DNA from: a virus
Taxonomy: Duplodnaviria > Heunggongvirae > Uroviricota > Caudoviricetes
DNA: 8,419 nt
Virus record (IMG/VR): IMGVR_UViG_2671181188_000016
Direction: 5' to 3' (one strand)
Shown: positions 7,345 to 8,419 of the stretch, in pieces
How positions within the stretch are numbered: the first letter of the stretch is position 1
Layout: the number at the start of each line of letters is the position of its first letter
The notes under the pieces: model-generated
The model's input: the letters and a program-made list of their open reading frames with translations, nothing else
Told to the model about the DNA's origin: nothing
The model's database searches: none
Program-made: the position numbers and the translations under genes

Positions 7345-7506
7345 ATGAGCGAATACATCACAGACCCTATTGATGTACTCACGGAAATCATGAACAACAA
7401 GCAGCAGCCAACCGAAATACGGTTACAGGCTGCCGCTGTTCTGATGCCATATTTTCACGAAACACTAAACCCGTGCTTCCAGGAGGATGAAGAAGATGAT
7501 CTGTAA
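7345..7506 (+). CDS. Hypothetical 53-aa acidic protein between the TerS-like and capsid-like genes
   Basis: ATG 7345 with TGAGGT about 8 nt upstream; acidic C-terminus (QEDEEDDL); its 3' end overlaps the start of the next gene and carries that gene's SD (AGGAGG 7481-7486). Confidence 0.4.
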   Translation: MSEYITDPIDVLTEIMNNKQQPTEIRLQAAAVLMPYFHETLNPCFQEDEEDDL

Positions 7507-8419
7507 AAACATGAAAGGCGTGCCAGCAGTTCGCGCCGCCAGCGTGCTGGCATCGTGTAAATTTAGCCATGCTGACGCTATAGAGATGACGAAAAGAAAT
7601 GATCCGGCAGTATCGTTATTTCTTGAAAAATCCATTGTTGCCGGAATGAACACGGATAACATGCCGTCGCTGGTGGCAGAGCCGATAGTAAGAGAGCTTG
7701 GCGAGTATATTTTTTCGCAGTCTGTACCAGGCAAGCTAATCAGCAGCGCGCTTAATCTTCCGTTTGGCGCAAAATTGCAGTCAATATCAGGCAAGGGTAG
7801 TAAATGGCTTAAAGAAGCCGAAGAAATCCCTGTCAAAGAGGGAGAAGTAAACGAAAGTGCGCTAAAACTGTGCAAACTTGGCGCTATTGTGATGCTGAAT
7901 AACGAGCTAATCAAATTTAGCACCCCTGGTACAAATTCAGCGATCAGAGACTTGATCACATCGGAATCGGTGAAAGAAATAGATAAAAAATTTCTTTCCA
8001 GTGACAAGGAGGTGGCTGGCGTATCCCCTGAGGGCGTGCTTAATGGTGCTGATGAGGCCGAAAACTTCATAGAGCTTTTCAAAAAGCACATAGCGAACGG
8101 TAACACGCTTTCCACGTCGTCGCTAATCTTGCCCGTAGAAAACGCCTTACAGCTTACTGATGCTGAGTTCTGGCAGATAGAGCTTTTGAGAATACCGGTA
8201 ATTGTGAGCGAACAGGCAGATCGCATGATGCTGATAGACGCTCAAAAGCTGATTATTAACGTTGAAGCCACGGTTATAACCCCAACTGATGAGGCGGTAA
8301 TAAAAACCGAATCAGGGGCGGTTAGCCTTTTCCAGAATGACGCTACAGCGTTCAGGGCAATCACCTATTGCGGATGGCAAAAACTCGATAAGGCCGTCAC
8401 CGTTCTGGCGAAAAGCTGA
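7496..8419 (+). CDS. HK97-fold major capsid protein-like protein, about 307 aa; ends at the last base of the window (stop TGA 8417-8419)
   Basis: The segment KWLKEAEEIPVKEGEVNESALKLCKLGAIVMLNNELIKFSTPGTNSAIRDLITSESVKEIDKKFLSSDKEVAGVSPEGVLNG aligns by eye to the conserved HK97-family core (compare HK97 gp5 [45 protein letters not shown]...GLN). ATG 7496 sits 9 nt after AGGAGG; track start 7487 has no spacing. The opposite-strand ORF 7465..8226 is Ser/Leu-rich and shadow-like. Confidence 0.6.
   Translation: MICKNMKGVPAVRAASVLASCKFSHADAIEMTKRNDPAVSLFLEKSIVAGMNTDNMPSLVAEPIVRELGEYIFSQSVPGKLISSALNLPFGAKLQSISGKGSKWLKEAEEIPVKEGEVNESALKLCKLGAIVMLNNELIKFSTPGTNSAIRDLITSESVKEIDKKFLSSDKEVAGVSPEGVLNGADEAENFIELFKKHIANGNTLSTSSLILPVENALQLTDAEFWQIELLRIPVIVSEQADRMMLIDAQKLIINVEATVITPTDEAVIKTESGAVSLFQNDATAFRAITYCGWQKLDKAVTVLAKS

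Follow-up and report, generated by a model that had tools for sequence, protein, structure and literature searches.

A solitary HK97-type capsid homologue in the late cassette of a mosaic Escherichia coli phage-inducible chromosomal island

What does a capsid protein do in an element that carries no portal, no protease and no large terminase subunit (TerL)? The question is raised by the last gene of an 8,419-nt stretch of DNA (IMG/VR virus record IMGVR_UViG_2671181188_000016; hereafter the window, meaning this whole stretch), which belongs to a phage-inducible chromosomal island (PICI). A first-pass annotation, made from the letters alone, had read this gene as a stand-alone HK97-type capsid gene placed right after a gene resembling that of the small terminase subunit (TerS), and had offered two explanations for it. 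The protein would either co-assemble with the capsid protein of a helper phage and redirect capsid size, as known for Ccm of the cos-type Staphylococcus aureus pathogenicity islands (SaPIs), or be the first product of an unconventional head module running on beyond the window. We examined the fold of the protein, the limits of the island, the selection acting on the gene and its relationship to the genes of possible helpers, and we weigh below what the homologue may do.

The capsid homologue and its place in the island

The terminal open reading frame (ORF; Table 1) is intact, with an AGGAGG 9 nt 5′ of its ATG and a stop codon that ends at the last base of the window; RefSeq labels the same coding sequence 'phage major capsid protein'. 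It matches the Pfam family PF05065 (Phage_capsid) over amino acids 100–300 with 29.4 bits against a cut-off of 24.2, and NCBIfam TIGR01554 (major_cap_HK97) with 27.8 against 27.5, that is, just above the cut-off. PHROG 617 and PHROG 10, both 'major head protein', were matched with E=1e-10 and 8e-9, and tblastn found annotated phage capsid genes at 24–27% identity over 94% of the length, with E down to 3e-16. An exhaustive HMMER search of 1.84 billion representatives retrieved 527 relatives at E<=1e-3; it was needed, as two word-indexed protein searches had given just 6 and 8. About 45 N-terminal helical residues are kept across this family.

The structural comparison gave the same answer. An AlphaFold2 model of moderate confidence (pLDDT 67.5, pTM 0.69, from a 9-sequence alignment), in which the likely E-loop at residues 90–123 is poorly modelled, was compared with the PDB by Foldseek. 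This returned 199 matches at E<=1e-3, and the 50 listed are without exception HK97-fold capsids or encapsulins, among them HK97 prohead I and the phi12 capsid subunits of the SaPIbov5 procapsid (7rwz chains B–D, following the naming of PMC8569155). A direct sequence search of the PDB yielded one chance match only. Profiles, tblastn and structure thus bear out the HK97-type core that had first been aligned by eye, and we conclude that the ORF encodes an HK97-type capsid homologue, well beyond chance. An encapsulin was considered and rejected: only the fold matches suggested it, the sequence relatives being phage capsid proteins or protease-capsid fusions and the gene lying in a cassette with terS.

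The limits of the island were set by its attachment site. An 11-nt att core, ATGATAGTTAT, has been published for PICIs inserted at cspD-clpS (PMC6092414 Table S1) and occurs exactly twice in locus L001, where the island lies with its flanks, at 5164 and 14352. In strain Sakai the cspD-clpS site is empty, and the match to its sequence runs up to the one att point and resumes from the other. The island, inserted between cspD and clpS, therefore measures 9.19 kb between its att repeats; the capsid gene is its last gene and attR lies ~630 nt further on. The window is identical to the IMG/VR provirus call UViG_2534681991_000035, which explains its limits, the integrase ATG on one side and the last stop codon on the other. 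Its genes are co-oriented throughout, in the order int-alpA-primase-late zone, several small ORFs are also present, and neither tail nor lysis genes were found in the island by Pfam and RefSeq annotation. In everything that can be computed (unidirectional organisation, a size within roughly 8–15 kb, a dedicated att site), the element is a classical Gram-negative PICI.

No other head gene accompanies the capsid homologue. When the portal, TerL, adaptor and fusion proteins of a related phage were used as tblastn queries, the sole match within the window was to the capsid domain, and there was none in the tail between the capsid gene and attR. Six annotated copies of the island likewise hold no head genes other than those of TerS and the capsid homologue, and in E. 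coli O157:H7 strain M1300706002 (99% identical) a stretch of ~730 nt devoid of annotated genes separates the capsid gene from clpS. The reported lack of portal, protease and TerL hence stands, and so does the position downstream of terS, apart from the words 'right after', since a conserved ORF of 53 codons (ORF53) lies between the two genes.

The same holds at other sites, the capsid gene being the last of the island in every context examined for its clade (43–99% identity). The next gene is yejO at the yejM/tRNA-Pro site of O26 and O111 strains, phoQ at the ycfD-phoQ site (IMG/VR locus L029) and the integrase of a second island in tandem arrangements (L004, L006 and L032); chromosomal genes follow in a metagenome contig (L002), and mug-rpoD-dnaG in Serratia aquatilis. 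A head module continuing past the window, the second explanation offered at first, is ruled out by these annotated flanks in E. coli and Serratia and by the IMG/VR and metagenome contigs.

The gene is also maintained. Compared with an 80%-identical homologue, it shows a dN/dS of 0.15 (92.5 synonymous and 68.5 non-synonymous differences, 161 in total); the O26 and O111 copies give a ratio of 0.20, a comparison at 52% identity gives 0.07, and all copies compared are free of internal stops. Of 5426 complete E. coli genomes, 220 contain the segment from terS to the capsid gene at 95–99% nucleotide identity, at most three times each. Given the low dN/dS, the absence of internal stops and this wide presence, the capsid gene is under purifying selection and is no decaying remnant. 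Decay from a capsid-forming PICI (cf-PICI) could be discarded as well, on the dN/dS of 0.15, the lack of portal, TerL or adaptor remnants and the lack of significant similarity to the cf-PICI capsid protein.

Two minor observations concern the gene itself. In the E. coli clade (the window protein, P0001 and P0003), a loop of ~13–17 residues is missing at ~268–276 (alignment columns ~325–345), immediately ahead of the conserved 'VSLFQ' strand; it is present in all other family members and in the phage fusion proteins, and the model is of low confidence there. In addition, a 253-codon ORF (7465–8226, minus strand) runs antisense within the capsid gene; we take it as an artefact of mechanical ORF listing, most likely a by-product of coding-strand composition.

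Table 1. Features of the window (positions in nt; +, strand as given)
Feature	Position	Strand	Evidence or remark
Tyrosine integrase	1-1224	+	Pfam, RefSeq annotation
Unassigned 257-aa ORF, int/alpA interval	1221-1994	+	Low-GC trough, 30-38% vs ~48%
AlpA regulator	2086-2310	+	Pfam, RefSeq annotation
DUF4222 protein	3634-3933	+	Pfam, RefSeq annotation
D5_N/DUF5906 primase-helicase	3930-5684	+	Pfam, RefSeq annotation
PICI backbone as a whole	1-5684	+	Pfam, RefSeq, att site in common with EcCIIHE3034
Late cassette: three small ORFs, terS, ORF53, capsid homologue	6051-8419	+
Candidate cos-like segment just 5′ of terS	~6717-6800	.	blastn, 84% over 57 nt to helper-type HNH-terS intergenic region
Five AAGTTACA copies	6802, 6814, 7015 (minus strand), 7044, 7068; span 6802-7075		Flank and lie in the 5′ half of terS
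TerS, 162 aa, Terminase_2 N-terminal helix-turn-helix	6845-7333	+	Pfam PF03592, E=1.9e-10
ORF53, conserved 53-aa ORF between terS and capsid gene	7345-7506	+	RefSeq islands, PHROG 641
Stand-alone HK97-fold major capsid protein homologue, 307 aa	7496-8419	+	Pfam, NCBIfam, PHROG, tblastn, AlphaFold2/Foldseek

A mobile late cassette and its probable helpers

The cassette that ends with the capsid gene has a history distinct from that of the rest of the island. Over 6051–8419 the window is 95.8% identical in nucleotides to EcCI11368.1 of E. coli O26:H11 11368 (L012) and to EcCI11128 of O111:H- 11128 (L013), two reference PICIs (Fillol-Salom et al. 2018, Table S1). Both carry the same three small ORFs, a 162-aa TerS, ORF53 and, in last position, a 307-aa capsid protein 97% identical to that of the window. 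They differ from it in two respects: their integrase belongs to the tRNA-Pro/yejM site, the window island lying at cspD-clpS, and they encode a RepA-type helicase in place of its D5-type primase. Outside the late cassette the window is 89–91% identical to EcCIIHE3034, whose late cassette differs. The att site ATGATAGTTAT at cspD-clpS is common to the window island, EcCIIHE3034 and EcCI18098. The island is thus a mosaic, and the late cassette moves as a unit between PICI backbones, being found also at ycfD-phoQ and on differing integrase and replication modules. The TerS-ORF53-capsid arrangement recurs at three or more E. coli att sites and, at 43–80% protein identity, in other enterobacterial islands, including that of Serratia aquatilis.

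As the same cassette sits in the published EcCI11368.1 and EcCI11128, there is little new in its mere existence. A 2018 study drew attention to capsid homologues in Gram-negative PICIs and explicitly set them beside Ccm (PMC6092414); for 21 of 29 reference PICIs a capsid gene is stated (PMC10111431), and the SatelliteFinder model of a PICI counts the capsid gene, next to terS, as a core 'capsid morphogenesis' component (PMC10085698). To call a capsid homologue in an enterobacterial satellite noteworthy, as was done at first, was consequently an overstatement: a lone capsid gene by a small-terminase gene is already known in PICIs, and the window adds a mosaic member and no new class. In the searchable literature we found no experiments on EcCI11368.1 or EcCI11128, whose names gave no main-text matches, and no paper testing the capsid gene family of the window.

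Which phages could such a cassette serve or exploit? The nearest E. coli phage relatives of TerS and of the capsid homologue fall in the same group, namely the phages converting for Shiga toxin (Stx) 1a, Stx2c and in some cases Stx2a, and the 'PPompW' prophages of Shiga toxin-producing E. coli (STEC). The island TerS, which matches PHROG 641 over its full length (E=1e-43), is 47% identical, again over the full length, to TerS of the Stx1a, Stx2c and PPompW lambdoid phages, with the best conservation in the N-terminal helix-turn-helix and in the last ~70 residues. The capsid homologue, from residue 7 to its end, aligns to amino acids 291–633 of the 645-aa PPompW head protein (24% identity, E=4e-19). 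That phage protein is a fusion, with a Peptidase_S78 domain at amino acids 48–153 and an HK97 capsid profile, delta region included, from about amino acid 204; the phage gene order is (HNH)-TerS-TerL-fusion-portal. The island protein corresponds to the shell part of the fusion only and is therefore without protease and without most or all of the scaffold-like region: at most ~45 residues precede its shell domain, which leaves little or no scaffold or delta domain. These likenesses make the Stx/PPompW lambdoid phages the probable helpers of the island.

The region upstream of terS points the same way. In HK97-like phages, cos lies in the intergenic region between the HNH endonuclease gene and terS. 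The matching segment of the window (Table 1) shows ~75 well-conserved columns in an alignment of the island, EcCI11368.1, the Stx2 phage 1717 and PPompW, and from this position it is a candidate cos site. It is followed by the AAGTTACA repeats, observed five times for 0.16 expected, a number reached in none of 200 shuffles. At the corresponding place, the phages carry TGTTAAC-type repeats. The AAGTTACA copies are candidate TerS-binding repeats, and the island may share its cut site with the phages while its TerS-binding sites have changed. The phage record MT225100 was deposited as circular, with no physical genome ends from which to place cos.

ORF53 overlaps the start of the capsid gene by 11 nt and ends in the acidic tail EEDEEDDL. 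It is annotated in the RefSeq islands, is retained in three homologous loci (L014, L005 and L017) and has a dN/dS of 0.17. It matches positions 89–125 of the TerS family PHROG 641 (E=8e-7), a C-terminal helical segment that is the best conserved between island and phage TerS; pairwise BLASTP of ORF53 against TerS gave no match, and the resemblance rests on this profile match. ORF53 could be a mimic of a TerS fragment acting on the helper terminase.

The comparison with the phage proteins also bears on a sober view of the capsid gene, which would take it as a captured late gene devoid of any packaging or interference role, a spare copy or a substrate for recombination with prophages. The model for this is c1499 of EcCICFT073, the deletion of which had no phenotype (PMC6092414), and cycles of capture and loss of late genes by PICIs have been proposed (PMC10111431). 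The nearest capsid domain among E. coli phages is only 24% identical, so the homologue cannot act as a spare copy of the phage gene or recombine with it. Moreover, long-term purifying selection, seen at 52% identity as well as between closer copies, and synteny across genera argue for a function. We regard a gene without role as quite improbable.

Possible roles in capsid assembly

Ccm of SaPIbov5, a cos-type SaPI, is the obvious point of comparison. Like the window protein, it is a lone capsid homologue of HK97 fold in an island with no other head genes, and its identity to the capsid protein of its helper phi12, ~24%, is at the level found here between the window protein and the capsid domain of its likely helper. 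The SaPIbov5 helper is a cos phage of the HK97-like kind and encodes an HNH endonuclease; the candidate helper phage 1717 has an HNH gene as well. Ccm fills the pentons of the small T=4 shell of SaPIbov5 (PMC8569155). There are differences too. Ccm has its own 87-residue delta domain, which is cleaved off, whereas the window protein, whose alignment begins at helper residue 291, starts at or near the shell domain and carries no sizeable N-terminal delta or scaffolding domain of the Ccm type. SaPIbov5 encodes no TerS of its own and depends on the cos site of the phage; the window island has its own TerS. Ccm turns a prolate head isometric, while the candidate helpers here are lambdoid siphophages. 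Beyond the common fold, we saw no sequence relationship between the two proteins.

Other Gram-negative PICIs offer closer or more distant parallels. PmCI172 of Pasteurella multocida (7.8 kb) also combines TerS with a lone capsid homologue; its helper is a Mu-like myovirus, unlike the lambdoid candidates of the window. Small capsids were seen by electron microscopy for PmCI172, and its authors thought an involvement of the capsid homologue possible (PMC6092414). Among E. coli PICIs, EcCICFT073 (with c1499) and EcCIIHE3034 each have a single capsid gene in their late zone; the latter island shares att site and backbone with ours and also encodes TerS. Their capsid protein is of the lambda gpE-type family, with a decoration gene alongside, and the window cassette differs in this respect; membership of the window gene in that family was ruled out, BLASTP being not significant (E=0.036). 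Transfer of the TerS-encoding EcCIIHE3034 and EcCI18098 was of low frequency only in the 2018 study (PMC6092414). Finally, the cf-PICIs EcCIEDL933 and Sakai Sp7 resemble the window in their backbone of int, alpA and primase, which is of the PICI type, and in having a capsid gene of the HK97 family. Their head and packaging set is complete, with capsid, protease, portal, adaptors, HNH, TerS and TerL, and they leave the helper unharmed; of this set, the window has TerS and the capsid homologue only.

On these grounds, Ccm-like co-assembly with redirection of capsid size is the best hypothesis for the window protein, one that we hold tentatively and at a little under an even chance. It is plausible, and it is also the standing assumption of the field. 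The island would be mobilised by HK97-like lambdoid STEC prophages of the HNH/cos type (the Stx1a, Stx2c and PPompW group), which make their capsid protein as a protease-scaffold-capsid fusion. The island TerS would steer helper TerL and HNH to the island's own cos-like site, and the capsid homologue, being the shell portion only and supplying neither protease nor scaffold, would co-assemble with the helper fusion protein. The helper scaffold is covalently joined to its own capsid domain, and the simplest expectation for a paralogue without scaffold is therefore that it would need co-assembly. As with Ccm in SaPIbov5, assembly would be biased to a smaller shell fitting the 9.2-kb genome, and the helper would be penalised at the same time. 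By our own estimate from T^1.5 scaling, and for a helper that packages ~45–60 kb, the capacity of a derived T=3 or T=4 head would be roughly 13–25 kb, enough for one to two island genomes. The solitary homologue, its degree of identity to the likely helper domain, the cos-like site, the 9.2-kb size and the purifying selection all fit such a role.

Several points weigh on the other side. Small capsids are not required, as five island copies (~46 kb) come to roughly the content of a helper-sized head. The protein lacks the sizeable delta domain of Ccm, and its probable helpers are named from sequence similarity only. The sole tested capsid gene of a Gram-negative PICI, c1499, which is of the other family, gave no deletion phenotype, and its island EcCICFT073 is packaged in full-size lambda heads (PMC6092414). 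In addition, distant relatives of the homologue, at 31–34% identity, adjoin a portal gene of their own in elements of ~9.6–10.6 kb, a hint that shells of this family may assemble without a helper capsid protein.

This last point leads to a different proposal, in which the protein by itself would build the whole, presumably small, capsid of the satellite on a helper portal, with portal, terminase, connectors and tails borrowed, a 'semi' capsid-forming PICI. The portal-adjoining relatives, in whose elements neither protease nor TerL is recognisable, speak for it, as do the N-terminal helical residues kept in the family. Encapsulins are an example of HK97-fold shells that need no separate scaffold to assemble. 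Delta-less HK97-type capsid proteins normally fail to assemble correctly, however, and the island has no portal, protease, scaffold or connector genes. Ccm by itself cannot form capsids (PMC8569155), and BLASTP against the capsid protein of the cf-PICI EcCIEDL933/Sp7 found no significant similarity. We consider a self-built shell improbable, as much so as a gene without role.

The portal-adjoining relatives are of some interest in their own right. In L019 and L020 (~9.6 kb) and L021 (10.7 kb), small primase-carrying elements, the capsid relative lies directly upstream of the portal gene. L019 and L020 resemble two circular permutations of one ~9.6-kb element, seen in 13 contigs of 5–10 kb. These elements may represent a minimal satellite type with capsid plus portal. 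A scan of genome contigs for relatives gave one locus. The distant family members are for the most part metagenome proteins, with Enterobacter as the source of one cluster.

Alternatively, the homologue may be a poison or decoy subunit. By entering the helper capsomers, or by binding the scaffold or portal of the helper, it would upset the assembly or maturation of procapsids; its main use would lie in interference with the helper or defence against it, and no usable small capsids would result. A protein that lacks the protease and scaffold parts of its helper counterpart would suit such a task, helper interference is typical of PICIs (PMC6092414), and purifying selection on the gene is compatible with it. 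Yet the gene shares one cassette with TerS and the cos-like site, which serve the island's own packaging, and a block of the capsid would stop the transfer of the island too, unless it were partial. PADLOC found no matches for the capsid homologue, ORF53 or the other unassigned ORFs. A poison subunit is in our estimation unlikely, if less so than a self-built shell or a gene without role.

Taken further, Ccm-like co-assembly suggests a more specific picture, which we put forward as possible and on balance doubtful. TerS, ORF53 and the capsid paralogue could form a three-part hijacking cassette directed at the HK97-like cos lambdoid prophages of STEC, Stx1a and Stx2c phages included. The paralogue would have to co-assemble with a protease-scaffold-capsid polyprotein and would force small (T=3 or T=4) heads, while the ORF53 mimic would disable or recruit the helper terminase. 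If true, this would be the first demonstrated mechanism of the Ccm type in Gram-negative bacteria, acting on a capsid protein with fused scaffold, and it could lower the output of Stx phages. More generally, a homologue that redirects or poisons the capsid assembly of Stx phages would have consequences for the production of Shiga-toxin phages and for horizontal transfer in STEC. For learning what lone capsid genes do in Gram-negative PICIs, the cassette is well suited: it is short and conserved, it moves between backbones, and a concrete group of candidate helpers and a candidate cos site come with it. What our analysis adds lies in this helper group, in the missing scaffold and protease, in the cos-like site and in the small TerS-like ORF.

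Other features of the island and its ends

The interval between int and alpA is the usual site of accessory or defence cargo in PICIs. In the window it holds the 257-aa ORF of Table 1, for which Pfam, PHROG, NCBIfam and PADLOC gave zero matches.

The tail between the capsid stop codon and attR (L001 13721–14347, beyond the window) is non-coding and dense in repeats. It contains a perfect 38-nt direct repeat with copies 360 nt apart, three ~39-nt units at a spacing of 54 nt with a short hairpin in each, and two 'CCCGATATGG...CCATATCGGG' palindromes. Two stretches of ~48 nt match roi/anti-repressor genes of lambdoid and Stx phages at 92–94%, on the opposite strand. A Rfam scan of the whole island gave no credible match, and none for the tail, which is ~290 nt shorter in strain OkiPb01711.

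Just within both island ends (L001 5259–5331 and 14215–14287) lies a 73-nt imperfect direct repeat with 74% identity between its copies. It contains GGTGTAGTTAAT doublets and TGTTCG repeats, and the GGTGTAGTTAAT doublet is the att core listed for the PICI EcCIDI14 (CGGTGTAGTTAATGGTGTAGTTAATT). These end repeats are probably arm-type binding sites of the integrase.

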